From: Mayamaea pseudoterrestris
Taxonomy: Eukaryota
DNA length: 64,000 nucleotides
Direction: 5' to 3'
Assembly: GCA_027923505.1 (NCBI GenBank)
Contig: BROI01000015.1
Location: 496,001-560,000, forward strand
In this document: one piece after another, positions 9,815 to 46,376 of the stretch
Layout: each line of letters begins with the position of its first letter
Position numbering within the stretch: position 1 is the first letter of the stretch
Made by a program: the position numbers and the translations under genes
Notes under the pieces: model-generated
Told to the model about the DNA's origin: nothing
Database searches by the model: none
Seen by the model: only the letters and a program-made list of their open reading frames with translations

Positions 9815-11477
9815 TCAGTTGTCGTCAATATGATCGTCCATCAATGGAATGGGCGCAGGCACCGTCTTGAAGTCGCAGCCAGTGAAACTTCGAACGTCGT
9901 CGACCGTCATTCCAGGAGCAATTTCGACGAGCGTGAGACCTGATCCGCCCTTCTTATCGCAGTCGAAAACGCCCATGTCTGTAATGATGCGGTCGACGAC
10001 CTTGTGGCCCGTCAATGGCAGTGTGCACTCGTCCATGACTTTAAACGAACCGTCCTTCGCAACATGGTCCATGGTTACGACAACCCGTGAGTTCGGGGCG
10101 CCCACTAAATCCATGGCTAGCGTACAGTGGAAAGGAGGTGAAGTTAGAATATTTTAGAAGGCACTGATAAATTTTTGAGGCACTTTAACCCAGCTTACCT
10201 CCGCCCATTCCTTTGAAAAGTTTGCCTGGCACTAGCCAGCTTGCCAAATCGCCAGATGCGCTAACTTGCAAGCCTCCCAAAATGGTCAACTGAATATGCC
10301 CACCGCGGATCATGCTAAACGACATGCTGGAACTGAACGTCGACGCTCCAGGCAATGGAGTAATTGTTTCCTTTCCGGCATTGATAAAGTCTGCGTCAGC
10401 TTTCTCCTTGGAACTTGGATAGGGACCTATTCCCATTAACCCATTCTCAGCTTGCAATTCTATCTTAATGCCATCCGGGACATAGTTGGACGCCATAGTT
10501 GGCATGCCGATGCCCAGATTTACGTACGCACCGTTGGTAAACTCCTTAGCCGCCCGCCGCATCACACGACCACGCTCACCGCTGACGAATCCAGACTTCG
10601 CCTGCGATGATTTATCCAAAAGTTTCAAGCGCTCAATACGCTTTTCATTGTCGATTGCCGCAATCACCTTGTGGACAAAGACGCCAGGCAGGTGTATGTC
10701 ATCTGGGTCTAGCGCTCCCGCCGGCACAATCGTTTCAGCCTCAGCAATCGTAATTTTGCCAGCCATGGCCGCATCCGGATTTGCATTTCGCGCCGTTCCC
10801 TTAAAGACAAGGTTTCCTCGCGTATCTGCTACGGCAGCCTTGACCAGGCTTACATCAGCGTACAAAGCTTCCTCCAAAACGTATTCAATATTGTTGAATA
10901 CTCGCGTTTCACGAGGCTGACTCGCTACCAAAATTTCATGATCCACACTTCCTAGTTTATATTGAATCGGAATACCGCCGTGCGCGTATATAGTTCCCGC
11001 TCCAGTTGGAGTATAAAATGCCGGTATACCAGCACCAGCTGCTTGGAGTCGTTGTGCCAATGTGCCTTGCGGAACAAGTTCCACCTGAAGGCGACCCGCA
11101 AAGAATTCTTGCTCAAGGTATTTGTTCTCGCCCACGTAGCTGCTCATTAAACGCTTGACTTTTCCAGATTCAATCAGTTTTCCAAGCGCAAAACCATCAA
11201 CTCCCCCAGTCAGTGAAGCGACCGTCAAGTTTTTGGCGTTGGTCTCGGAGCTTGTTGCAAGTTCGTTTAGCAGTGTCTCTGGATTGCCCGATAGACCAAA
11301 GCCACCGACAGCAATGAGAGCACCATCCAGATTAATCCCAGCCAAAGCCTCTTTCGCGCTGCCGACGACTTTGGATAATGGAGCGCCGTTTGCTGGTGTC
11401 GAGAAACATCGTCGAGAAACGTCGAGGTAGATTCGTCGAAGACCTGGTTCATGATGCAGCAGCACATGGAAGACCAT
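9815..11477 (-). CDS. OXCT1: Succinyl-CoA:3-oxoacid CoA-transferase (SCOT), mitochondrial, 2 exons
   Basis: VGGFG, SSYVGEN, NLGIGMP and AENG motifs. Intron 10117-10198 restores GMGGA/MDLV. Confidence 0.95.
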
Positions 11478-11797
11478 GATGCGTGATATGCTAGCTCTTC
11501 CTTAGATCCAGTCAAAATTTAGTTTCGCTTCTTCTTTGCCGGGCAAGGTTCGGAATGCAACGATAACAAGTAATGAAGCAACGAGAAGTGAGCGATCAGC
11601 CATGACACGCCATCATCAGCAAGGATGCAAAGAACAAACACAAACGCGGAGCGAAGACGAATGAAGCCTCACTTCTCATGTCGCACCCTCACTGATGCTA
11701 AGAACATGTGTATCGCATCGGGTTCCAATAACCGGAACCTTGCGAGTCTCCACACGTTGATGAAAACTCGTCACTTGCTTTTTTCACACAATTCACC

Positions 11798-13141
11798 ATG
11801 ACGGCCATGCGTGCCGACCCTGCTCTCATTGATATGTCGTCTTCCCATTCATCCTTGAGCTCCATAGACGACAAGAGTACTCGAAGACAGCAGGGCAGCG
11901 AGATACCAAGTCTAGACCTCCATGGCCTCACGAGAGACGTTGCAATTCGACGCGTCACTGACTTTTTAGAAACGCACGCTGCCGCACCTAATCCACTTCC
12001 ATCCAGCAGTGCAACGACCAGCAATAACAGCAGCGGTAGTAGAAGCAAACACAAGAAGCGAACTACATGGGTTTGTATCATTACTGGAAGTGGATCTCAT
12101 AGCGCCCAAGGTCCTGTTCTTCGATCCGAAGTGCAAAAGCTGCTTGAGCGCCGACAAATGGAATACTCAAGGAACACTGCAGGTAGCTTTCTCGTCAATG
12201 CACCCAGCGGCATTACCTTATATGCTCAAACCCAATCAGTAGACTCCAAAATTATAGTTCAAGGACAGAAACAGCAGCAGTCATCAGAGGAGGATGCCGT
12301 CCAAGAGTTTATGCGCAACGCACAAGCTGGACGAGTCGTCACCTTGAACAACCCACGCCCTGATGCATCAATGAATGGATCGTCTAGCAGCTTAAATTCT
12401 TCTGAGCACTTTCCGTCACTCCAAGAAGTTCAAAGAGAGCATAATGATATTGTCAAGGCGCAAGAAGAAAGCTTGAGTGCTTTTGAATCAAGTCGCAAAC
12501 TAGCGTCGCAGGAACAGTCGGCCATTCAAGCAGCACTAGCACTTTCACAGGAGCAGATTGACAGGGAGCGACAGGAGGAAGAAGCCGCCATACTTACAGC
12601 ACTTGAAGAATCCAAAAGCATGGCGGAGCTACAACTAAAAGAGGAACTCGACTTGATGAAAAAGGCACTGGACGAATCAAAGCAAGAGTCAGAACTACAG
12701 CAACAGCAGGAGAGCAACTTGCTAAAAAAGGCACTTGAAGACTCCAAGCTACAAGCCGAGTTGGAACAGCAACATGAACAAGAAGCCATGGCTAAGGCGC
12801 TTGAGGAGTCAAAGCGCCAGATGGAGTTCGAGGAGGCGCAGATGAACTTGATTTTGGAGGAATCCAAACGATTAGCACAGAGTCATCAAACGAGCGACGA
12901 GCTTTTGCTACAAAAGGCATTGGAGGAGTCACAAAAGGCTGCCAAGGCTCTTCAGGAGGAAGATTTGCTACTGCTACGAGTCATGGAGGCATCTAGACGC
13001 CAGCATTATTCGAATCATCCGCGCGAAGACGAAGTGCTTTCGCTGGTGCTCACACAATCAGCGCGACTTGCGCAACAAGACCAAATGTCCGACGACGAGC
13101 TAATACGGCGCATCATGGATCAAAGTTTGAAGGACAACTGA
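11798..13141 (+). CDS. Smr-domain protein with tandem ubiquitin-interacting-motif (UIM)-like repeats
   Basis: N-terminal LDLHGL...IITGSGSHS (Smr signature). C-terminal half has about 11 acidic-LxxALxxS helices, e.g. EEAAILTALEESK and DELLLQKALEESQ. Confidence 0.85.
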   Translation: MTAMRADPALIDMSSSHSSLSSIDDKSTRRQQGSEIPSLDLHGLTRDVAIRRVTDFLETHAAAPNPLPSSSATTSNNSSGSRSKHKKRTTWVCIITGSGSHSAQGPVLRSEVQKLLERRQMEYSRNTAGSFLVNAPSGITLYAQTQSVDSKIIVQGQKQQQSSEEDAVQEFMRNAQAGRVVTLNNPRPDASMNGSSSSLNSSEHFPSLQEVQREHNDIVKAQEESLSAFESSRKLASQEQSAIQAALALSQEQIDRERQEEEAAILTALEESKSMAELQLKEELDLMKKALDESKQESELQQQQESNLLKKALEDSKLQAELEQQHEQEAMAKALEESKRQMEFEEAQMNLILEESKRLAQSHQTSDELLLQKALEESQKAAKALQEEDLLLLRVMEASRRQHYSNHPREDEVLSLVLTQSARLAQQDQMSDDELIRRIMDQSLKDN

Positions 13142-13306
13142 CTTTTGCTTGAACATTCCCGGAGAATTCTACTGGAAAATTAGCTACGATACGACGAAAC
13201 ATTGTACAATTTGCAATTGCAGGCTAGCATAGCGAAATTTCGTTTATATAGACCATACGGATCATGACATGTATAAAAAGTGCTAACTCTAGGACTAGCG
13301 CGTACC

Positions 13307-15778
13307 TCACGAAAGGAAGTATCTAGAGCCACTTCCGGTGCGTACTGTTTCTTCCGCAGCAATCCTTCCGGATGCAATTGGCGATGTCGTGATACGTTCA
13401 CCATCTCGAAAGTTGGGCGAGCCACTTATAAGCCCAGTAATGCTGCCATCGCGATTCTCCTTCCACTTGCTAATGGAAGGGACGCCTCGAGGGGCCGTTC
13501 GCACTGGCCTTCTCTCAAATCCGGTAGACCTTTTCGCAGACGCTGGCGATGGACTGAAAGGAGCTGAGCTACTTTCAATCTTGGCCGTATTTCCAAATAG
13601 CGAGAATGTTGATCGAGGCTTCGCCTGTTCGACTGTCTCAAGCGCAGTCTTGGCATCTTTGTCGCGAGTTTGACGAGTGAGCGTTATTGTTGCCCCCGGA
13701 AGAGCCGAGAAAAGGTCTTTCATGGCATTCTGTTTATTTGTAACGCCACCTGGAGTAGTGTCGCTCAAGAAATACTTGGAACCGCTGCCCGTCTCCACAA
13801 CACATCCATTCTCAATATCACCCTTTGCAATCTTCGTTGTCTCGATACGATCGCCATCGTCAAAGTTAGAATTGCCGTACACTAATCCGCTAATGCCTCC
13901 GTCTCGTCGAAGCTTCCACCTCACAATAGTTGAAACGCCAGCTGGCGCCTTCGTTAACCTTGGAGAGGGCTTCTTTTGAGAAGGCGCAACCCGAAGACTG
14001 GGACTCGAGAATATGTTCATGACCGGCGTGATTTGCGCCTGTTGCTCCTTGTTTCGCTGAGCTTCCAATCGTTGCTGCTCAGCTTTGACTGCAGAAGACT
14101 TCCGAGCGTCGGCTTGCTCCTGTTTCTTCAATTGAGCAGCTTTGTTTGCAGCCTCGCGTTTCACGCGTGCCTTGTCAACAGCTGCCTTCTGCGCAGCGGC
14201 TTGCTCTTGTTTCTTTTTTAGTTCCGCTTGTCGCTTCGCTGCAGCCTCTTGGCGTTGCCTTTCCTCCGCTGCTTGGCGGTTTCGCGCGTCTTGTTGCTTG
14301 CGCTCCATATCTGATTGACGTTGCGATTCTAGACGAGCCTTTGCTGCTTCTGCAGCCTGTTGCTTCTTCGCAAGTTCTGCTTGGCGTCTACTCTCCGCCT
14401 CTGCCTGACGTTTCGCATCAGCTGCGTTCCTTCGGGCTTCGTCTTCTCTACGTTTCTTGTCTAAATCGTCGCGTCGCTTCGCCTCCGCCTCGCGTGCCCT
14501 GGCTGCCGCTTCTTGCTGTTTCCGTCGCTGATCAGCTTCGTCGCGCTTGCGTTTTGCGTCCGCTTCCTTAGTGTCTGTACTCGTTGATCTTGACGCGCTG
14601 TCTTGGTTCAACAAATTCTTCAAAGAAACCTCGCTAAAGATAAAATTATCATCTGATTTCTTTGCAGGGGTTGCCGATTTTTTGGTAGTCGCTTCTGCGA
14701 CCTTGGGCAAGCTGAATGCCGATGGTTCAATCTTGGGTAGCTCCATCTTCGGTGCATCAATTTTCGGCAGCTCAAAGTTTGATAAATTAATTTTCGGCGC
14801 TTCAATCTTTGGTAGCTCAATCTTTGGAGCTTCTTTCTTTGGTGATACAGAACGCGGCGCCGAAGGAGCCCTAGGCGGAACCTTTGGCGGTTCTGGCTTT
14901 TTCGGTGGCTCTACTTTTGCGAGGGGCGTTGTCGGAGGAGGCAGCCTTGGTGGCTGAGGCTCATGCGTCTTGTCCTTGTCCAACATGGCTTCCAATTTCT
15001 TGATTTGTTTGCGCGGCAGGGCAGTCACTTCGTCAACAGCTCTCGTAAAAGTCTTTGACGCCGAGTCGGCAATTCGTCCCGGTGTTGCTGCAGCTTCTTC
15101 GGCCAGCTTGTCAGCTGCGTCTAGTGCAGCATCAGCAATCTTGCTAGGAATGGCTTCAATGCCCTTAATAGTTTCATCAGCTTTCTTTGCAGCGGCTGAT
15201 TGGACCTTGCCAGGAATAGCTTTGATTCCATTGACTGTCTCTTCGGCCTTTCGTTGCGCGGCATTTTGAATATTGCCAGGGATCGACTGAATACCAGCTA
15301 CCATATTATCGGCTTGCCGCTTGGCAGCGTTAGAAGCAGCATTGGCAAGTTTTCCAGGCATTGCCTGAACCTCCGTGGCAACCTTGGTGGCGGCGCCAGT
15401 TGCCGCATTCGCCATGAATTTGCCAACTTTACTCGCAAATCCCTGCATGAATTTGAGTGCCGCATTCTCTTCCTGAGGCGGCGACGATGGTCTCGTCGGT
15501 TGCTTTGGAGTTTGCACTGGAATATTTACTTGTTGCTGCTGTCCGTTGACTTTGTTAAGTGATTGTTCGGCTGCTCGTAAGGCGTCCTCCACTTCTGCTG
15601 TGACGTCCTCGACGCTGATTTGTTCCTTGTTTGGATCGACTGCGTACAACAACGTCGATGGACTGCTATTTTGAATCGTAAGGCTATTGTATGTTCTATA
15701 ATTGACTGGAGCTGCTCGGAAGGCTCCATCGCATGGGATTACAAGCGCAAGGATGGCTGCTGAAAGGGAGAGCCTCAT
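13307..15778 (-). CDS. Predicted plastid-targeted repeat protein of unknown function
   Basis: Signal peptide plus AF motif (CDG-AFRAAP), 22-aa amphipathic repeats, PKIEL pentapeptides, an A/K/E/Q coiled coil and a duplicated ~60-aa C-terminal domain ending TGSGS(K/R)YFLS. Confidence 0.8.
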   Translation of the reverse strand: MRLSLSAAILALVIPCDGAFRAAPVNYRTYNSLTIQNSSPSTLLYAVDPNKEQISVEDVTAEVEDALRAAEQSLNKVNGQQQQVNIPVQTPKQPTRPSSPPQEENAALKFMQGFASKVGKFMANAATGAATKVATEVQAMPGKLANAASNAAKRQADNMVAGIQSIPGNIQNAAQRKAEETVNGIKAIPGKVQSAAAKKADETIKGIEAIPSKIADAALDAADKLAEEAAATPGRIADSASKTFTRAVDEVTALPRKQIKKLEAMLDKDKTHEPQPPRLPPPTTPLAKVEPPKKPEPPKVPPRAPSAPRSVSPKKEAPKIELPKIEAPKINLSNFELPKIDAPKMELPKIEPSAFSLPKVAEATTKKSATPAKKSDDNFIFSEVSLKNLLNQDSASRSTSTDTKEADAKRKRDEADQRRKQQEAAARAREAEAKRRDDLDKKRREDEARRNAADAKRQAEAESRRQAELAKKQQAAEAAKARLESQRQSDMERKQQDARNRQAAEERQRQEAAAKRQAELKKKQEQAAAQKAAVDKARVKREAANKAAQLKKQEQADARKSSAVKAEQQRLEAQRNKEQQAQITPVMNIFSSPSLRVAPSQKKPSPRLTKAPAGVSTIVRWKLRRDGGISGLVYGNSNFDDGDRIETTKIAKGDIENGCVVETGSGSKYFLSDTTPGGVTNKQNAMKDLFSALPGATITLTRQTRDKDAKTALETVEQAKPRSTFSLFGNTAKIESSSAPFSPSPASAKRSTGFERRPVRTAPRGVPSISKWKENRDGSITGLISGSPNFRDGERITTSPIASGRIAAEETVRTGSGSRYFLS

Positions 15779-16984: not shown

Positions 16985-17237
16985 GATGCTAATTTTTTGT
17001 TATCGCAATTCAAGGAGCCAAGAGCAACAAAACGATAGACTTGCGATGCTTTTGTTGGGCGACGAGCAACTCGTCGAAGTTAGTAAGCCGGTAACTTGAA
17101 AGTCTGTTCGGTACACAAATGTCAGCGTCGCTCCGGGAATGACAGCTTCACGACCGAGGACCACCGATTTGTGCCAAAGAACAAACCGAGAAGGAGTCTG
17201 CTGTCCAAGTTGCACTCATTCCTTGCTTTCGACTAAC

Positions 17238-19589
17238 ATGTCATCCAAAAAGTCGACGCAGTTCACAGTTTTTGTGCGTTTCAATCCGCCCAATGCCAAT
17301 CTTCGTCGGCATCATACGGAGCAGTGGTTCGCCGGCGTTGGTCCGATCAAGAAAAGCAGCCTCATTCATCAAGACAATAAGGTCTATGGCTTTATCAAGT
17401 ATACGTGTCAACAAGATACGGAACAAGCTGTTAAAGAGTATAACAATAAGGCATATACGGTAGATGGAGAAAAGGTTCAGGTGCAAATGGTCTTGGCCGA
17501 CAAGGCATCATCGTCGGCAAGTGCTGTTTCGACGACGCCATCGGCGACGGCACCAAAAGATACACTCGACAAGAGGCAGCCCGAGCAGTCACAGGAGCAG
17601 CAACATGATCGACGTGACACTCATGAAGTCTACCGCAAAAAGGCCTGCCGCCTCATCCTCCGCAACCTTGCCTTTTCTGCCACGGAGCGTGAGATTCGCA
17701 AATCACTTTCAACCTTTGGACCACTGACGGAGGTTCACATTCCGACGGTGACTGGCGCGCCGACGCATCGGGGCTTTGCCTTTGTCACTTTTGAAAAGGT
17801 GAATGACGCCAATGAGTGCTTGAAGGCTGCCGGTAATATTATGATTGGTAAACGACCCGTGCAAGTGGCGCACTCACTAAACAAGGCAGACTATGATCAA
17901 CAAAAGCAAAAGGGTGATCAAAAAGGAAAGGATAAAAGATTTCGAAATGACGAAAAGATGAATGTTGTCGAAGAAAAGAAGGATCACGACGAAAACAGTG
18001 ATGACGACCACGAGGAACACGACGGCGAAGAGAGCGACGACCAATCGGAGACAGGCAGCACTCATGACTTTGCCAAGGCTGACGATGACTCTCACATGGA
18101 CGAGAAGTCGCAAGAAGAGGGCAGGAAATCGGACCGTAATGCAGCCTTGGCTGAGAAACGTGCCCTCTTCATTCGCAACTTGCCCTTTGATGTTTCACGA
18201 CATGATCTATTTGAATTGTTTCGCAAATATGGCAAGATTGACTCCATTTATCTCTGTAAGGGCGAAAATGGAATTGCCAAGGGTACAGCTTTTTTAAACT
18301 ACGTCAAGCCGGCAGCCGCGCAGAGAGCGGTGCAGGCGGCAGATGTAAGTGGCGGCGCCGGTGGTGATTTTGACGGGGCTGGCATTTTGCTGAGTGGTAG
18401 ACGCTTGTTGGTTGATTTGGCCGTCGACAAGGAGACTGCCACAACTCTTACAATTGACAAGAACAATGTGGGTGGAAAAGATCGGCGCAACATGTATCTT
18501 CGGACGGAAGGGCGCGTGGATGAAACATCTGAATGGGAAGCATTGCCCGCAGCGGACAAGGAAAAGCGACAGCGAGCATGGGCAGACAAGAATACTAAGC
18601 TTAAGTCTCCTATCTTCTTCATCAATCCAACGCGGCTTAGTTTCCGTAATCTAGCCAAGCATGTCGACGAGACGGGGCTTAAAAAGTTGCTTGTCTCTGC
18701 AACTGCAAAAGGCATTGAGAAGAAGCTAGTGTCGGCGCAGGACCAGATTGCCATGTGGAAAGCGAAGGGCGACATGACCACTCGTGAGATCCTCGCTCGC
18801 ATACAAGAGATTGAGGAAGGTGAAGACGGCGAAAATTCAATACTACCAGCGTTTGACTCTGCAAACGTAAGGCGCTACATTCCATCTGTCTTTATCGACC
18901 GAGACTATTCGAAGGGAGACCGCAAAGATGCTCCCAGTAGAGGCTTTGGCTTTGCGCAATTCGAACACCATGTCCATGCATTGGCTTGCTTGCGCGAGCT
19001 GAACAACAATACCGATTACACGAAGGACTTTGTTGCTGGAGGAAGCCGAGCGTGGCAGGCGCTAAAGCGACCGAAAAAATCTAAGAAAAAAGCAGCTTTT
19101 GAATCCGATGCGAGTGGATTAACAGATGAAGACGGGCAAGTCAAACTGCCTCGGCTAGTTGTTGAATTTACTGTCGAAAACAAGGTCAAGGCGAAGCAGC
19201 AAGTTGAGCATCGCGCGCATCAAGAGGCCAACGTGTTAAAGCAAAAGCTCGAGGGTAAGTCTTCGAAGAAGAAGAAGGAAAAGAACAAGGCTCGAGGAGC
19301 ACGACAGCGCGAGAATCGACGCAAGGCTCAAGAAATGGACGGCGAGACTGCAGAAGTTGAGACAACAAATGCTGTGGCGAGCGAGGCGATGGAAACCGAG
19401 GAACATCTTACCGTGGAGAAGACGAAAATGGCCAAGCCGCCAAAGAAGAAGCCAAAGATTGATCCGAGCGAGAAAAAATTCAACGATTTGGTGGAAACTT
19501 ATAAGCGCTCCTTCGTTGCCAGTACTACCATCGCTGAGGTTGCAGGAGCGGCATCAGCCGAGAAGTCTGAGAAACGATGGTTCGAGTAA
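17238..19589 (+). CDS. RBM28: RBM28/Nop4 nucleolar multi-RRM ribosome biogenesis protein
   Basis: Four RRMs (LILRNL, RGFAFVTF, KGTAF, SRGFGFAQFEHHVHALACLRELNN), DRRNMYL, KLKSPIFFINPTRL and C-terminal KRWFE. Confidence 0.92.
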   Translation: MSSKKSTQFTVFVRFNPPNANLRRHHTEQWFAGVGPIKKSSLIHQDNKVYGFIKYTCQQDTEQAVKEYNNKAYTVDGEKVQVQMVLADKASSSASAVSTTPSATAPKDTLDKRQPEQSQEQQHDRRDTHEVYRKKACRLILRNLAFSATEREIRKSLSTFGPLTEVHIPTVTGAPTHRGFAFVTFEKVNDANECLKAAGNIMIGKRPVQVAHSLNKADYDQQKQKGDQKGKDKRFRNDEKMNVVEEKKDHDENSDDDHEEHDGEESDDQSETGSTHDFAKADDDSHMDEKSQEEGRKSDRNAALAEKRALFIRNLPFDVSRHDLFELFRKYGKIDSIYLCKGENGIAKGTAFLNYVKPAAAQRAVQAADVSGGAGGDFDGAGILLSGRRLLVDLAVDKETATTLTIDKNNVGGKDRRNMYLRTEGRVDETSEWEALPAADKEKRQRAWADKNTKLKSPIFFINPTRLSFRNLAKHVDETGLKKLLVSATAKGIEKKLVSAQDQIAMWKAKGDMTTREILARIQEIEEGEDGENSILPAFDSANVRRYIPSVFIDRDYSKGDRKDAPSRGFGFAQFEHHVHALACLRELNNNTDYTKDFVAGGSRAWQALKRPKKSKKKAAFESDASGLTDEDGQVKLPRLVVEFTVENKVKAKQQVEHRAHQEANVLKQKLEGKSSKKKKEKNKARGARQRENRRKAQEMDGETAEVETTNAVASEAMETEEHLTVEKTKMAKPPKKKPKIDPSEKKFNDLVETYKRSFVASTTIAEVAGAASAEKSEKRWFE

Positions 19590-19654: not shown

Positions 19655-21053
19655 CTAGAAGATCTTTTGATACTGGCCTTTCTGCAGAAAAGCGACTGGA
19701 CTTTGGTTACCTGCGAGTAACCAGCTTTCGATCGTAATCTTCGCATTTCCAGACGCTTGGTCCATCTCCGATACGACTCCTTGGCCGTATTGCGTCGACA
19801 CCTTATCTCCAATTCTTGCCCATGCACTGCCTTTTGCCACCATGGACGCTGCGTCCTTCTCATCAACGGCCGACAATGCATTAAGCGTCATCCCTAACCC
19901 ATCGAGCACGCCGTATACGACCTTTTCAAGATTGAGCGTATAAAAGTGGAGCACCGTTACATGACCACTTGCCATGAGCTCCTTGCATGTCTGCACACCA
20001 AACTCAATGCCAAACTGCTTGATTGCAGCCGCGTCGTCCTTGATGGACTCCATCTTGTTGCGCAATTCGTCCGGAACGCGAGTCTTGCAAAACTTTGCCA
20101 TCTTGACAAAACCGGCGTAGTTGTTAATGCACATCAGACCAGGTACAATTGGACAAGCAATTCCGACTCGCCGGCAGTCGTCTACAAATTTAATGTATAC
20201 TTTTGCGTCAAAAAACATTTGCGTAATGATAAGGTCTGCCAAAAATGGGCGAATAATTAGAACTGGCAACAGATACAATACGACGACATTCATTGACATC
20301 GTCCATATTGTCACGTACCTGCTCCAGCGTCCACCTTTTTCTTCAAATATGCAAGTTCCGATTCATAATCCTTGTCAAGGCAGCAATATGTAACGCCGTC
20401 GAAATTACTCGCTCGCAACTGTTCATCCGCCGTCAAGGTCGACGCATCCTCCACGACTGAAATGGCATTCGGATGTCCCTCGGGATATCCAGCAACGCTG
20501 ATTCCAAAGTCATTTCCAAACTTCTCCTTGATAAACAAAACCAAGTCTAGTGCGCACGTGAATCCACCTTCACTCGCCTTCCATTCCTCCTCTCCAGCAG
20601 GAGGATCGCCTCGCAAGGCAACAATGTTTCGAATGCCACCTTCATGAGCCGTTTTGAGAGATTGGTAGATCGCTTCCTTTGGATCAGCCACGTCTTGTAG
20701 GTTGGTGCAGGTCAAGTGGAGGTTACTCACGTGCCCAGTGCGTTGCGCATACAGTCCCAAGTCCATGGAAATGTCCGAAGTGCTACCTCCGGCGCCCCAA
20801 GTCATGTCGGTAAACAGGGGATTAACTGTCTGCTTCATGCGATCCATGCGTGCGTAGAGACTCTATGTATGTTGTAGAAAAAAGTTGTTACAGAGTGAGA
20901 GGTGCATTGAGCGTGACGAGTGACAAGGGCAGCCTCGGGCTTCTCTCGCAATCTCACCTTGACGCCATCCTCTGTTCGCGGCGGAAAGAACTCCAGTGAA
21001 ACATGAGGCTTGGTAGGGTCTGCATTCTGCAGTAGGTCGATAATCTTGGTCAT
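19655..21053 (-). CDS. MTHFR: Methylenetetrahydrofolate reductase (catalytic domain plus short C-terminal domain), 3 exons
   Basis: SLEFFPPRT, TWGAGG, HLTC, ALRGDPP, VAGYPEGHP, KKKVDAGA/DLIITQMFFD and LHFYTLN. Introns 20863-20957 and 20236-20318. Confidence 0.95.
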
Positions 21054-44501: not shown

Positions 44502-46376
44502 TCAATGCGTTTCGTCGACGTAACGAGATGCCTTGTGGCGCTTCCTCGCATTTCCAGCATCTTCGTCTGAGGTGAGCGTGACTTGGTTGCGCATTCGCGG
44601 CACCTCTGGCATGTCTCGTCCGTCTGCTTGGGCAGCGTAGGCCTCCTTCATCCGAGACATGTTACTCTTGCTAATGACCGTATGCTCGACAATAGGATGT
44701 GGGTAATTTTCGCCAACTATCACGCCGCAGTTTTGTTGCGTCGCCAAGGGTGCCTTCCAAGGCTCATAAATAAATTTTGCTGGAAACCGCTTAAACTGCG
44801 GGAGCCACTTTCGAATATAGTTACCTTCCGGATCAGTCTTTTTTCCAAAAGCGACAGGGCTGTAGCATCGAAAGTACTGGTAAAAGTGTGCCGTACAGCT
44901 AAGCCATTGCCAGTTGAAATTGTTAATGCTCCAGTCGGCGTCGATGAGCAATTCTTCAAAGACTGCAGCGCCCTGCTCCCAGGATTGCCACAAGTCACCC
45001 CTCGTCAAAAAGCAGGCCACGGCGTGTCGGGCAAGATGATGGATCCAACCCGTCTCGCGTAGTTGCGTCATGATGGCGTCGATGAATGGGTATCCAGTGC
45101 GTGAGTTTCGCCAGGCTGCCAAAAGCTCGGGATCATTGTCCCAAGGGATTTGGCGAGCAACTGGATTATTCAGCATGTGTTCAAAATTGGGCGTTGTGTA
45201 GCCAGTGAGTGTATTGAACTCGCGCCATAACAATTGACCATGCAGTGTGACTTGAAGCGGCTCGGGAAGCTTCTGTTTATACTTGGTAGTGTACACTTTT
45301 GTCAGTTCATTGTAGAATCGCAAGGCTGACAAGCAGCCATGCTTCACGTAGGGGCTCAAGCCAGTGGTGTCAACTTTGAGGGCGTTTGGAAGGGTGTTTG
45401 GCTTCTCAAATTTACCGACCCAGTCAGCCCGAGCCATTTGCTGCTCCAACAACTTTAAAGCGGCTTTTTCGCCACCACAAAAGTTTAATCCTGCCTTGTG
45501 GCGATGTGCCAGTGCAGCCTTAACGTCAGTGTAACCCAAATGTTTCTCCATGACGGAAACAGGGTCCGCCAACTCTTCGTCTGTCAGCAATGTCATGTGC
45601 TCCTTTAGCTCTTGTAACATCTTGGAGTCATTTTTGTCCCAGGGTAATGGAGGAAAAGCATCAGGTGTCAATGGTGGCACTTCGTCTCGCAACTTCATCT
45701 TGACAAATATTTTGCGAAAGCCTTCAAACTGTGAGGGAGCAACGTGATCCTTACATCGCTGCACATATGATTCAAGCGGATGGAGTGTATGTGTCGAGTG
45801 GGCGCGAATCGTGACGCTGGTCGTTGCTTCCTGCTGGCGAACATGCTGGAGAATCGCTGCGTCCTGCGCCCGAACCGGTGCGGCTGGGTCTTGCTCATAG
45901 TACAAATGACTACTCTTTGTAGCGCGCAGAATGGTCGGCAGTACTTGCTTAGGGTCGCCGACAGCAACCATAATGTCAATGTTTTTCTCTAGCTTCAACT
46001 CTCTAATACTTTCGAGTATAAAATTTGCTCGGATAGCTCCAGCTCCAAGGTCGTGCGATTGAGCGAAGGGGGCGCTCGGATCAATGATAAAGACGGGAAG
46101 AAGGTGCGATGACTTGTCGCAAGCATCAGACAAACTTGGGTTGTCATGGAGCCGTAATGCATTGCGAAACCAGTAGACAGAGCGATGCTTGGTTTCGTCG
46201 GCGTCGGTTACAGTATCCCTGGACGATTTCTTAATTGACTTCTTTTGATTGTACGGATTCATCATCGCGTTGGTGACAGAGCGACAGAACTGTCCAGTCT
46301 CGTAAAGTCTGCGGACTCTAGCTTGATAACTCGTGCTGCCTAATTGGAAGGACGTTGTATAGATGAATCGTCGCAT
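44502..46376 (-). CDS. CPF1: Cryptochrome/(6-4) photolyase family protein (diatom CPF1 type)
   Basis: YWFRNALRLHDNP, TTGLSPY, TGYPFIDAIMTQLRETGWIHHLARHAVACFLTRGDLW and DADWSINNFNWQWLS. The start may be at 46265. Confidence 0.93.
   Translation of the reverse strand: MRRFIYTTSFQLGSTSYQARVRRLYETGQFCRSVTNAMMNPYNQKKSIKKSSRDTVTDADETKHRSVYWFRNALRLHDNPSLSDACDKSSHLLPVFIIDPSAPFAQSHDLGAGAIRANFILESIRELKLEKNIDIMVAVGDPKQVLPTILRATKSSHLYYEQDPAAPVRAQDAAILQHVRQQEATTSVTIRAHSTHTLHPLESYVQRCKDHVAPSQFEGFRKIFVKMKLRDEVPPLTPDAFPPLPWDKNDSKMLQELKEHMTLLTDEELADPVSVMEKHLGYTDVKAALAHRHKAGLNFCGGEKAALKLLEQQMARADWVGKFEKPNTLPNALKVDTTGLSPYVKHGCLSALRFYNELTKVYTTKYKQKLPEPLQVTLHGQLLWREFNTLTGYTTPNFEHMLNNPVARQIPWDNDPELLAAWRNSRTGYPFIDAIMTQLRETGWIHHLARHAVACFLTRGDLWQSWEQGAAVFEELLIDADWSINNFNWQWLSCTAHFYQYFRCYSPVAFGKKTDPEGNYIRKWLPQFKRFPAKFIYEPWKAPLATQQNCGVIVGENYPHPIVEHTVISKSNMSRMKEAYAAQADGRDMPEVPRMRNQVTLTSDEDAGNARKRHKASRYVDETH

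Follow-up and report, generated by a model that had tools for sequence, protein, structure and literature searches.

The window analysed here is the whole 64,000-nucleotide stretch of Mayamaea pseudoterrestris DNA from contig BROI01000015.1 (positions 496,001 to 560,000, forward strand), and our subject is one of its genes, which encodes an N-terminal Smr domain joined to a long C-terminal array of motifs resembling the ubiquitin-interacting motif (UIM). The gene was read from the list of open reading frames (ORFs) and their translations as an uninterrupted ATG-to-TGA frame at 11798..13141 on the forward strand, specifying 447 aa. Three close orthologues (P0002-P0004) are 56, 48, and 43% identical to it and cover 92-98% of the 447-aa protein. 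None of the public runs listed as containing the stretch is marked as RNA. Contigs from four public runs, all belonging to one study and of unspecified data type, are colinear with the ORF and free of joints; two of the four runs cover the ORF partially, and the parts that they leave uncovered were not used as evidence. These contigs differ from the window at five positions within the ORF (12815, 12882, 12965, 13030, and 13045). Three of the differences are nonsynonymous (R340C, S362N, and L390V) and two are synonymous, and none falls inside any of the eight-residue UIM cores described below. Antisense ORFs over the repeats (e.g., 12526-12867, minus strand) give Ser/Cys-rich translations, which is what Glu/Leu/Ala-rich codons are expected to give when read backwards. 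The coding sequence and the features of its N-terminal part are as follows.

11798..13141, + strand: whole coding sequence, single exon as read, 447 codons plus stop
11909..12199, + strand: Smr domain core, residues 38-134, beta-alpha-beta-alpha-beta-beta (Pfam, AlphaFold2, Foldseek, profile match)
11915..11926, + strand: DLHG (DxH catalytic motif), residues 40-43, read from the sequence and conserved in the family
11981..12067, + strand: low-complexity insert in the alpha1-beta2 loop, residues 62-90, short or absent in P0002-P0005 (homologues, AlphaFold2)
12083..12103, + strand: TGSGSHS motif, residues 96-102, read from the sequence and conserved in the family
12110..12124, + strand: GPVLR, residues 105-109, including the conserved Arg109 (family alignment)
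12242..12250, + strand: conserved D-x-K after the Smr fold, residues 149-151 (homologue alignments)

The N-terminal part forms an intact Smr domain, probably of the type found in N4BP2, Cue2, and NONU-1. Pfam assigns residues 39-120 to Smr (PF01713) with 35.1 bits against a cut-off of 25.7 (E 1.5e-8), and the two motifs from which the original prediction had recognised the domain, DLHG and TGSGSHS, are in place at residues 40-43 and 96-102. The AlphaFold2 model of residues 30-160, built on a 150-row alignment, has a mean predicted local distance difference test score (pLDDT) of 81.2 and the element order beta-alpha-beta-alpha-beta-beta. When the fold was compared with the PDB using Foldseek, the six top chains were all N4BP2 Smr domains (probability 1.00, target-normalised template modelling score 0.60-0.84), followed more weakly by MutS2 Smr chains, including chain 8qpp_W bound to a collided disome, and then by the Smr domain of Escherichia coli YdaL. 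A profile of seven homologues likewise matches three solved N4BP2 Smr entries among the PDB sequences (E 3.2e-6 to 1.5e-5), so that the Smr domain of human N4BP2 is the closest solved structure both by sequence (E 3.2e-6) and by fold; the N-terminal 167 aa used as a single query gave no match to PDB sequences at E ≤ 1.

The residues expected of an active Smr domain are well preserved. Across the 125-member family alignment, G97 and G105 are invariant, and D40, L41, H42, G43, T96, G99, H101, S102, P106, L108, R109, and K151 are each at least 90% conserved; D149 and K151 are invariant among seven homologues. In the family consensus, a D-[ST]-K-V element stands right behind the Smr fold, and a P-x-P-x-E-V-A element precedes the first UIM. 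In yeast Cue2, mutation of D348, H350, and R402 impairs mRNA cleavage (PMC6598757). The Asp and His of DLHG are the counterparts of D348 and H350, and Arg109, which the profile alignment places opposite an Arg of N4BP2, is probably the equivalent of R402. Conservation of the DxH, TGxGxHS, and Arg positions at 90% or more over 125 members thus argues for retained catalysis. The insert in the alpha1-beta2 loop, 29 residues long, is rich in Ser, Thr, and Asn and ends in a Lys/Arg patch; it is species-specific, being missing from relatives or far smaller in them, and in the AlphaFold2 model it is disordered (pLDDT <50 over residues 65-87). The insert is a candidate nuclear signal or RNA contact.

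The remainder of the protein, beyond a linker, is occupied by the array. The published UIM consensus is Ac-Ac-Ac-x-Phi-x-x-Ala-Phi-x-x-Ser (PMC8273247). We searched for an eight-residue UIM core in a loose form, hydrophobic-x-x-[AVILG]-hydrophobic/Q-x-x-S, and in a strict form with Ala at the fourth position. The loose pattern matches 11 times, starting at residues 218, 243, 265, 287, 309, 331, 349, 371, 392, 414, and 436, with successive spacings of 25, 22, 22, 22, 22, 18, 22, 21, 22, and 22 residues. Six of the 11 repeats follow the consensus strictly; of the five that deviate, four have Ala replaced by Val or Ile, and the remaining one has Gln at the second Phi position. The core Ser, at the eighth position, is present in every repeat, and the six positions upstream of each core hold one to three acidic residues in all 11 motifs. 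Such a series is very unlikely to come from composition alone: when residues 205-447 were shuffled 5000 times with their composition preserved, the loose pattern occurred on average 0.70 times (maximum 4) and the strict pattern 0.15 times (maximum 2), and not one shuffle reached the observed 11 and 6, respectively. The features of the array are listed below, together with scores from two repeat profiles, one built from the 11 repeats of the window protein itself and one from relatives, both introduced further on.

12419..13003, + strand: predicted continuous alpha-helix, residues 208-402 (195 residues), motifs 1-9 (AlphaFold2)
12449..12472, + strand: UIM-like core 1, residues 218-225, degenerate (second hydrophobic position taken by Gln), loose pattern only; 20.9 bits with the protein's own repeat profile, missed by the relatives' profile
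12524..12547, + strand: UIM core 2, residues 243-250, canonical, strict pattern, matched by the relatives' profile
12590..12613, + strand: UIM core 3, residues 265-272, canonical, strict pattern, matched by the relatives' profile; A268 and S272 invariant in seven homologues
12656..12679, + strand: UIM core 4, residues 287-294, canonical, strict pattern, relatives' profile 10.1 bits
12722..12745, + strand: UIM core 5, residues 309-316, canonical, strict pattern, relatives' profile 8.4 bits; S316 invariant in seven homologues
12788..12811, + strand: UIM core 6, residues 331-338, canonical, strict pattern, matched by the relatives' profile; S338 invariant in seven homologues
12842..12865, + strand: UIM-like core 7, residues 349-356, Ile in place of the core Ala, loose pattern; Ala in P0002
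12908..12931, + strand: UIM core 8, residues 371-378, canonical, strict pattern, relatives' profile 8.1 bits
12971..12994, + strand: UIM-like core 9, residues 392-399, Val in place of the core Ala, loose pattern; Ala in P0004
13037..13060, + strand: UIM-like core 10, residues 414-421, Val in place of the core Ala, loose pattern, on a separate predicted helix (410-428, AlphaFold2); Ala in P0002 and P0004, repeat lost in P0003
13103..13126, + strand: UIM-like core 11, residues 436-443, Ile in place of the core Ala, loose pattern, on the last predicted helix (432-445, AlphaFold2); conserved in P0002-P0004

Whether these repeats are UIMs, or whether the C-terminal half is a mere charged coiled coil or single alpha-helix in which an E/K/Q/L-rich composition imitates the pattern, has to be decided from evidence that does not all point one way. 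Several results weigh against UIMs. The Pfam UIM models (PF02809 and PF23625) report no match in the full-length protein at E ≤ 10, and at that threshold Pfam UIM reports none in the three closest orthologues either. When the repeats were scanned singly, one of the 11, core 2, was reported, with 13.7 bits (E 0.059) against a cut-off of 21, in a search in which the HMMER filters discard most weak matches to the 17-position UIM model. The Pfam comparison by which the original prediction was to be checked thus confirms its Smr domain and leaves its UIMs below threshold. In a phmmer search of the PDB, the best match of the C-terminal 243 aa is a coiled coil, that of Par-4 (E 0.0031), joined by just one weak, unrelated chain. 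The relatives' profile misses five of the 11 repeats, and in these five either the canonical Ala is missing or the second hydrophobic residue is. To this the coiled-coil explanation may add that AlphaFold2 draws most of the array as a single 195-residue helix and that, in the repeat alignment, the hydrophobic positions line up as an unbroken stripe with a period of 22 residues.

The shuffles speak against composition as the source of the pattern, and comparison with solved structures and with relatives points the same way. The profile of the 11 repeats, run against 177,635 distinct PDB sequences, gave 12 matches at E ≤ 10, eight of which are UIM peptides or fusions (ZFAND2B, ANKRD13D, three entries of Vps27, ataxin-3, Hrs, and RAP80). 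The five top matches are all UIMs rather than coiled coils, with a best E-value of 0.007; the remaining four of the 12 are unrelated to UIMs, and all the E-values are weak. In the reverse direction, a profile of 50 repeats drawn solely from Pfam-positive relatives matches six repeats of the window protein, against no match in the reversed sequence and a mean of 0.08 in 200 shuffles. The five deviant repeats are out of this profile's reach, since the strict pattern served as its seed. Relatives in which non-helical linkers separate the repeats pass the Pfam UIM model, which counts against the coiled coil. The three close orthologues keep the core Ser in 32 of 33 cells, have Ala, Val, or Ile at the Ala position in 33 of 33, and are hydrophobic at the first hydrophobic position in 33 of 33, compared with 47% identity (272/579) at the other positions of the array. 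Within one and the same repeat, Ala is swapped for Val or Ile between orthologues, and the solved ANKRD13D peptide (7rma), the second-best PDB match, shows Ile in the column that corresponds to the consensus Ala of the repeats. The five repeats that deviate may therefore still function. Because the Pfam threshold is not reached here, the assignment rests on the reciprocal profiles, the Pfam-positive relatives, and conservation among orthologues. On these sequence comparisons, we classify the repeats as UIM-type motifs, six canonical and five degenerate, in line with the roughly 11 UIM-like helices of the original prediction, and consider a plain coiled coil highly improbable.

Recent tandem duplication at the DNA level was considered as a source of the array and rejected, given that Tandem Repeats Finder (minimum score 30) detected no DNA-level repeat over 11700-13300. 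The array is thus old and has been maintained.

AlphaFold2 was also applied to the full protein, on a seven-sequence alignment (mean pLDDT 72). The linker is poorly modelled, with one short helix at residues 164-176. Beyond it, the predicted helix at residues 208-402 reaches a pLDDT of 95-97 across residues 240-350, and together with the predicted helices 410-428 and 432-445 it holds all 11 motifs. On an ideal alpha-helix, a step of 22 residues corresponds to a turn of 40 degrees and a rise of 33 Angstrom, compared with turns of 200, 240, and 340 degrees for steps of 20, 24, and 25 residues. Register offsets taken from the PDB alignments are 20 residues in ataxin-3, 24 in ZFAND2B, and 43 in Vps27, versus 22 in the window protein. 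If the model is right, the near in-phase period of 22 residues suggests that successive ubiquitin-binding faces lie roughly on one side of a rigid rod, and such a one-sided rod would suit extended chains or several neighbouring marks. A two-copy complex prediction of residues 205-405, in which the alignment was not used, scored 0.00 against a mark of 0.32 and was counted neither way on binding. A search of the ESM Atlas gave no usable match.

The protein belongs to a sizeable family. A HMMER search with the Smr region against 1.84 billion representatives retrieved 185 proteins at E ≤ 0.001, 120 of them at E ≤ 1e-10, and a further search with the 125-member alignment returned eight proteins, one of which was new. 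At least two strict cores are present in 149 of the 181 proteins collected, and at least three in 126, so that the family comprises at least 149 proteins with an N-terminal Smr domain and two or more C-terminal UIM cores; the collected proteins without cores are mostly short entries of fewer than 240 aa. Smr-first order is close to universal, with 522 of the 523 strict cores lying C-terminal to DxHG, which upholds the reversal of domain order relative to Cue2 and its kin that the original prediction had drawn from a single sequence. The spacing of 22 residues is also the commonest in the family (79 of 409), followed by 21 (27), 26 (25), and 25 (24). At E ≤ 1, Pfam finds Smr in 124 of 125 relatives, UIM in 57, UIM_2 in 38, and RAP80_UIM in 4. 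Twelve of the 125 match Pfam UIM at E ≤ 3e-4, and among the 104 relatives listed, 12 exceed the 21-bit UIM cut-off, the best with 48.8 bits. The window protein's own repeat profile identifies 242 domains of at least 5 bits in the first 152 of the collected proteins and none in their reversed copies. What sets the window protein apart is the length and regularity of its array: with 11 motifs it has the most among the 152 proteins compared, the next relatives having 9, 8, and 8.

Names of family members come from a search with residues 30-160. They include, from the pennate diatom Fistulifera solaris, two hypothetical proteins entered in UniRef as 'Smr domain-containing protein', transcripts from marine eukaryote transcriptomes, and one member from the centric diatom Chaetoceros dichaeta. 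Occurrence in both pennate and centric species indicates that the family is at least diatom-wide, and part of it is known from transcript data. The members are labelled hypothetical, and one bears the automatic name 'DNA-nicking Smr family endonuclease'. Some relatives carry additional domains. In P0122 (440 aa), Smr and four strict UIM cores are accompanied by a GYF domain at the C-terminus (Pfam, 53.4 bits), and P0007 (422 aa) apparently has the same architecture, ending where GYF starts. Behind their N-terminal Smr domains, P0114 has a KH domain (25.4 bits) and P0040 a UvrD-type helicase N-terminal domain (26.8 bits). GYF-domain proteins also take part in collision-triggered mRNA decay. The GYF domain of P0122 and the KH domain of P0114, as domain matches, point to RNA or translation.

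The genes around the locus are ordinary eukaryotic nuclear genes, in a window with a G+C content of about 47-55%. Two unrelated genes on the opposite strand flank the Smr-UIM gene:

10188-11477, - strand: CoA-transferase gene
13307-15778, - strand: long low-complexity protein of 823 aa, no Pfam match at E ≤ 1e-5

The long middle part of the 823-aa protein is rich in Ala, Lys, Glu, Gln, and Arg, and its translation contains, near the C-terminus, two copies of a module of about 58 residues with the pattern W-K-x-x-R-D-G ... G-S-G-S-x-Y-F-L-S. Elsewhere in the window, an 816-aa protein with RRM domains (two matched stretches) is encoded at 17139-19586 on the plus strand, and a photolyase/cryptochrome-family gene lies at 44505-46376 on the minus strand. 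Some genes, among them MTHFR and protein kinases, are split across two ORFs. In the case of MTHFR (19658-20847, minus strand), ORFs 19658-20299 and 20314-20847 correspond to Pfam model positions 173-287 and 33-173, respectively, and the simplest explanation of such a split over adjacent ORFs is a short intron. None of the neighbours in the 64-kb window is informative on the function of the Smr-UIM gene, and no ubiquitin gene is found among them. Targeting to an organelle was judged unlikely, as a hydropathy scan, run without a dedicated predictor, revealed no hydrophobic N-terminal signal (highest Kyte-Doolittle value 0.65 in an 11-residue window); the protein is probably cytosolic.

Among characterised proteins, the nearest parallels are Cue2 of Saccharomyces cerevisiae and NONU-1 of Caenorhabditis elegans. 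Cue2, like the window protein, joins an Smr domain with DxH and a conserved Arg to several ubiquitin-binding modules (PMC6598757), but its Smr domain is C-terminal and its readers have the CUE/UBA fold, whereas the Smr domain described here is N-terminal and accompanied by 11 single-helix motifs of the UIM type. NONU-1 and N4BP2 also pair Smr with ubiquitin-binding domains, which in their case are two CUE domains that precede the C-terminal Smr together with a P-loop polynucleotide kinase (Glover et al., bioRxiv 10.1101/674358). Pfam finds neither CUE nor UBA nor the polynucleotide kinase domain in the window protein, and judged by domain architecture it does not look like an orthologue of Cue2 or NONU-1. 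The bacterial proteins SmrB and MutS2 share with these the action of Smr domains at collided ribosomes; unlike the eukaryotic proteins, they are recruited by direct ribosome contacts and not by ubiquitin (Saito et al., bioRxiv 10.1101/2021.08.16.456513), and MutS2 has ATPase and KOW domains in addition. As regards the array, RAP80, ZFAND2B (AIRAPL), and ataxin-3, all retrieved by our repeat profile, have closely spaced helical UIMs as well, but two of them each and no nuclease fusion, compared with 11 and an Smr domain here. UIMs have been described as present 'often in tandem or triplets' (PMC8273247).

Fusions of Smr to UIM as such have been noted before. NONU-1 homologues include fusions to UIM, UBL, and RING domains (Glover et al.), and CUE, UBA, UIM, and UBL are frequent in eukaryotic SMR proteins (Saito et al.); in the text of both preprints the UIM is named within a list of fused domains and no more. 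The window protein most likely belongs to this group of fusions. Our literature searches, outside the scope of which lay most subscription journals and the bioRxiv supplements, yielded no experiment on an Smr-UIM protein and no mention of one in diatoms; among the matches listed, the Smr-domain papers touching diatoms concern PPR-SMR, MutS2, dinoflagellate RNA-binding proteins, and GUN1. The original prediction had presented the architecture as one not known to be characterised, and to that extent it stands, in that no study was found. The domain pairing itself, however, was already on record, so that the window protein is a new and extreme member of a noted yet uncharacterised kind, and its novelty is below the earlier estimate.

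By analogy with these systems, the most economical account of the function is that of a ubiquitin-guided no-go-decay nuclease. Cue2 cuts mRNA at collided ribosomes (PMC6598757), the first two of its CUE domains recognise eS7 that carries poly-ubiquitin, in one mode of no-go decay (PMC9841427), and eukaryotic SMR proteins dock through their ubiquitin-binding domains on ribosomes marked by Hel2 (Saito et al.). In the corresponding mechanism, a ligase of the Hel2/ZNF598 type would place ubiquitin marks on stalled or collided ribosomes, and the UIM array would bind several ubiquitins at once, either in one long chain or as marks on neighbouring 40S proteins. The resulting avidity would keep the flexibly tethered Smr domain close to the mRNA channel, where the DxH/Arg site would cut the mRNA, so that decay of the no-go type and ribosome rescue could begin. 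The working would be the same as in Cue2 and NONU-1, but with Smr first and with UIMs instead of CUE/UBA domains. That the window protein is such a ubiquitin-guided Smr endonuclease at stalled or collided ribosomes we regard as having about an even chance of being correct. The anatomy of the gene as originally predicted is thus supported, and the prediction as a whole, which had extended to this function, is partly supported and plausible.

How the array might read ubiquitin is a more delicate matter. In RAP80, the linker and the two UIMs that it connects join into a single helix when K63-linked di-ubiquitin is bound, and K63-specific avidity results (PMC2951365). The near in-phase 22-residue period resembles this arrangement, suggesting a preference for extended K63-type chains; of all the steps of the mechanism, this is the most speculative. 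Support for the array as a reader of long chains is geometric alone, consisting of the predicted continuous helix and its near in-phase period. A bolder proposal would make the array a rigid poly-ubiquitin ruler, in which nine near in-phase UIMs on a helix of about 290 Angstrom, with two more past short breaks, would accept nothing but extended K63-type chains of considerable length, or else ubiquitin marks distributed across at least two adjacent ribosomes. Cleavage would then be licensed by the length of the chain or of the ribosome queue rather than by a single mark, and the family-wide 22-residue period would be a tuned parameter. On the predicted model from which it derives, we find this proposal quite improbable.

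The same two parts could also make up a different enzyme. DNA nicking has been described for the Smr domains of MutS2 and N4BP2, and the UIMs of RAP80 bring BRCA1-A to K63 chains at DNA breaks; by the same logic, the array would bring Smr to poly-ubiquitinated chromatin, where it would nick DNA. Such a role would agree with N4BP2 being the closest solved Smr domain, with the RAP80 tandem UIMs among the PDB matches and the four relatives touching RAP80_UIM, with the helicase domain of P0040 and the automatic name of one relative, and with the basic patch of the loop insert as a putative nuclear signal. The Smr domains of MutS-family proteins are, moreover, described as DNA-nicking hydrolases (PMC6598757), which, like the helicase-bearing relative, tells against a role at the ribosome. 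However, the ubiquitin-binding eukaryotic Smr proteins that have been tested, Cue2 and NONU-1, act on mRNA at ribosomes, the KH or GYF domains of other relatives point to RNA, and Pfam finds no DNA-binding or repair domain in the window protein, which leaves ubiquitin-guided DNA nicking quite improbable. Two further published results sit uneasily with a ubiquitin-guided mRNA nuclease. In the other of its two cleavage modes, Cue2 can dispense with ubiquitin binding (PMC9841427), and MutS2 of Bacillus subtilis, recruited via its SMR domain, splits collided ribosomes without cleaving mRNA. The latter raises the prospect of a non-cutting, ubiquitin-binding adaptor on ribosomes or RNA, or else of a nuclease directed to other ubiquitinated ribonucleoprotein targets. 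Some expanded eukaryotic Smr proteins have been proposed to act outside translation surveillance (Glover et al.), and UIM arrays are at work in endocytosis, at the proteasome, in repair, and in many other pathways (PMC2951365). Conservation of the catalytic positions throughout the family is not what one would expect of an adaptor, and Pfam detects in the window protein no second effector domain, such as an ATPase, by which it might act without cutting; we consider this explanation unlikely. The ubiquitin-guided no-go-decay nuclease therefore remains the reading that we prefer.

Should that reading hold, evolution would have joined the same type of catalytic domain to another kind of ubiquitin reader, a modular one, and this would provide independent support for ubiquitin recruitment as the essential principle of the eukaryotic enzymes. 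If, instead, the array is a plain avidity device, the protein would be an ordinary addition to a known kind. The influence of UIM spacing on preference for chain type and chain length has so far been studied mainly on proteins with two UIMs, and the regular 22-residue array on one predicted helix offers a natural test object for it. No-go decay and collision surveillance have been elucidated in yeast, worms, mammals, and bacteria, and our literature searches found nothing on either in diatoms. Diatoms are major marine primary producers, and the Smr-UIM family provides a concrete candidate for the nuclease of their collision pathway.

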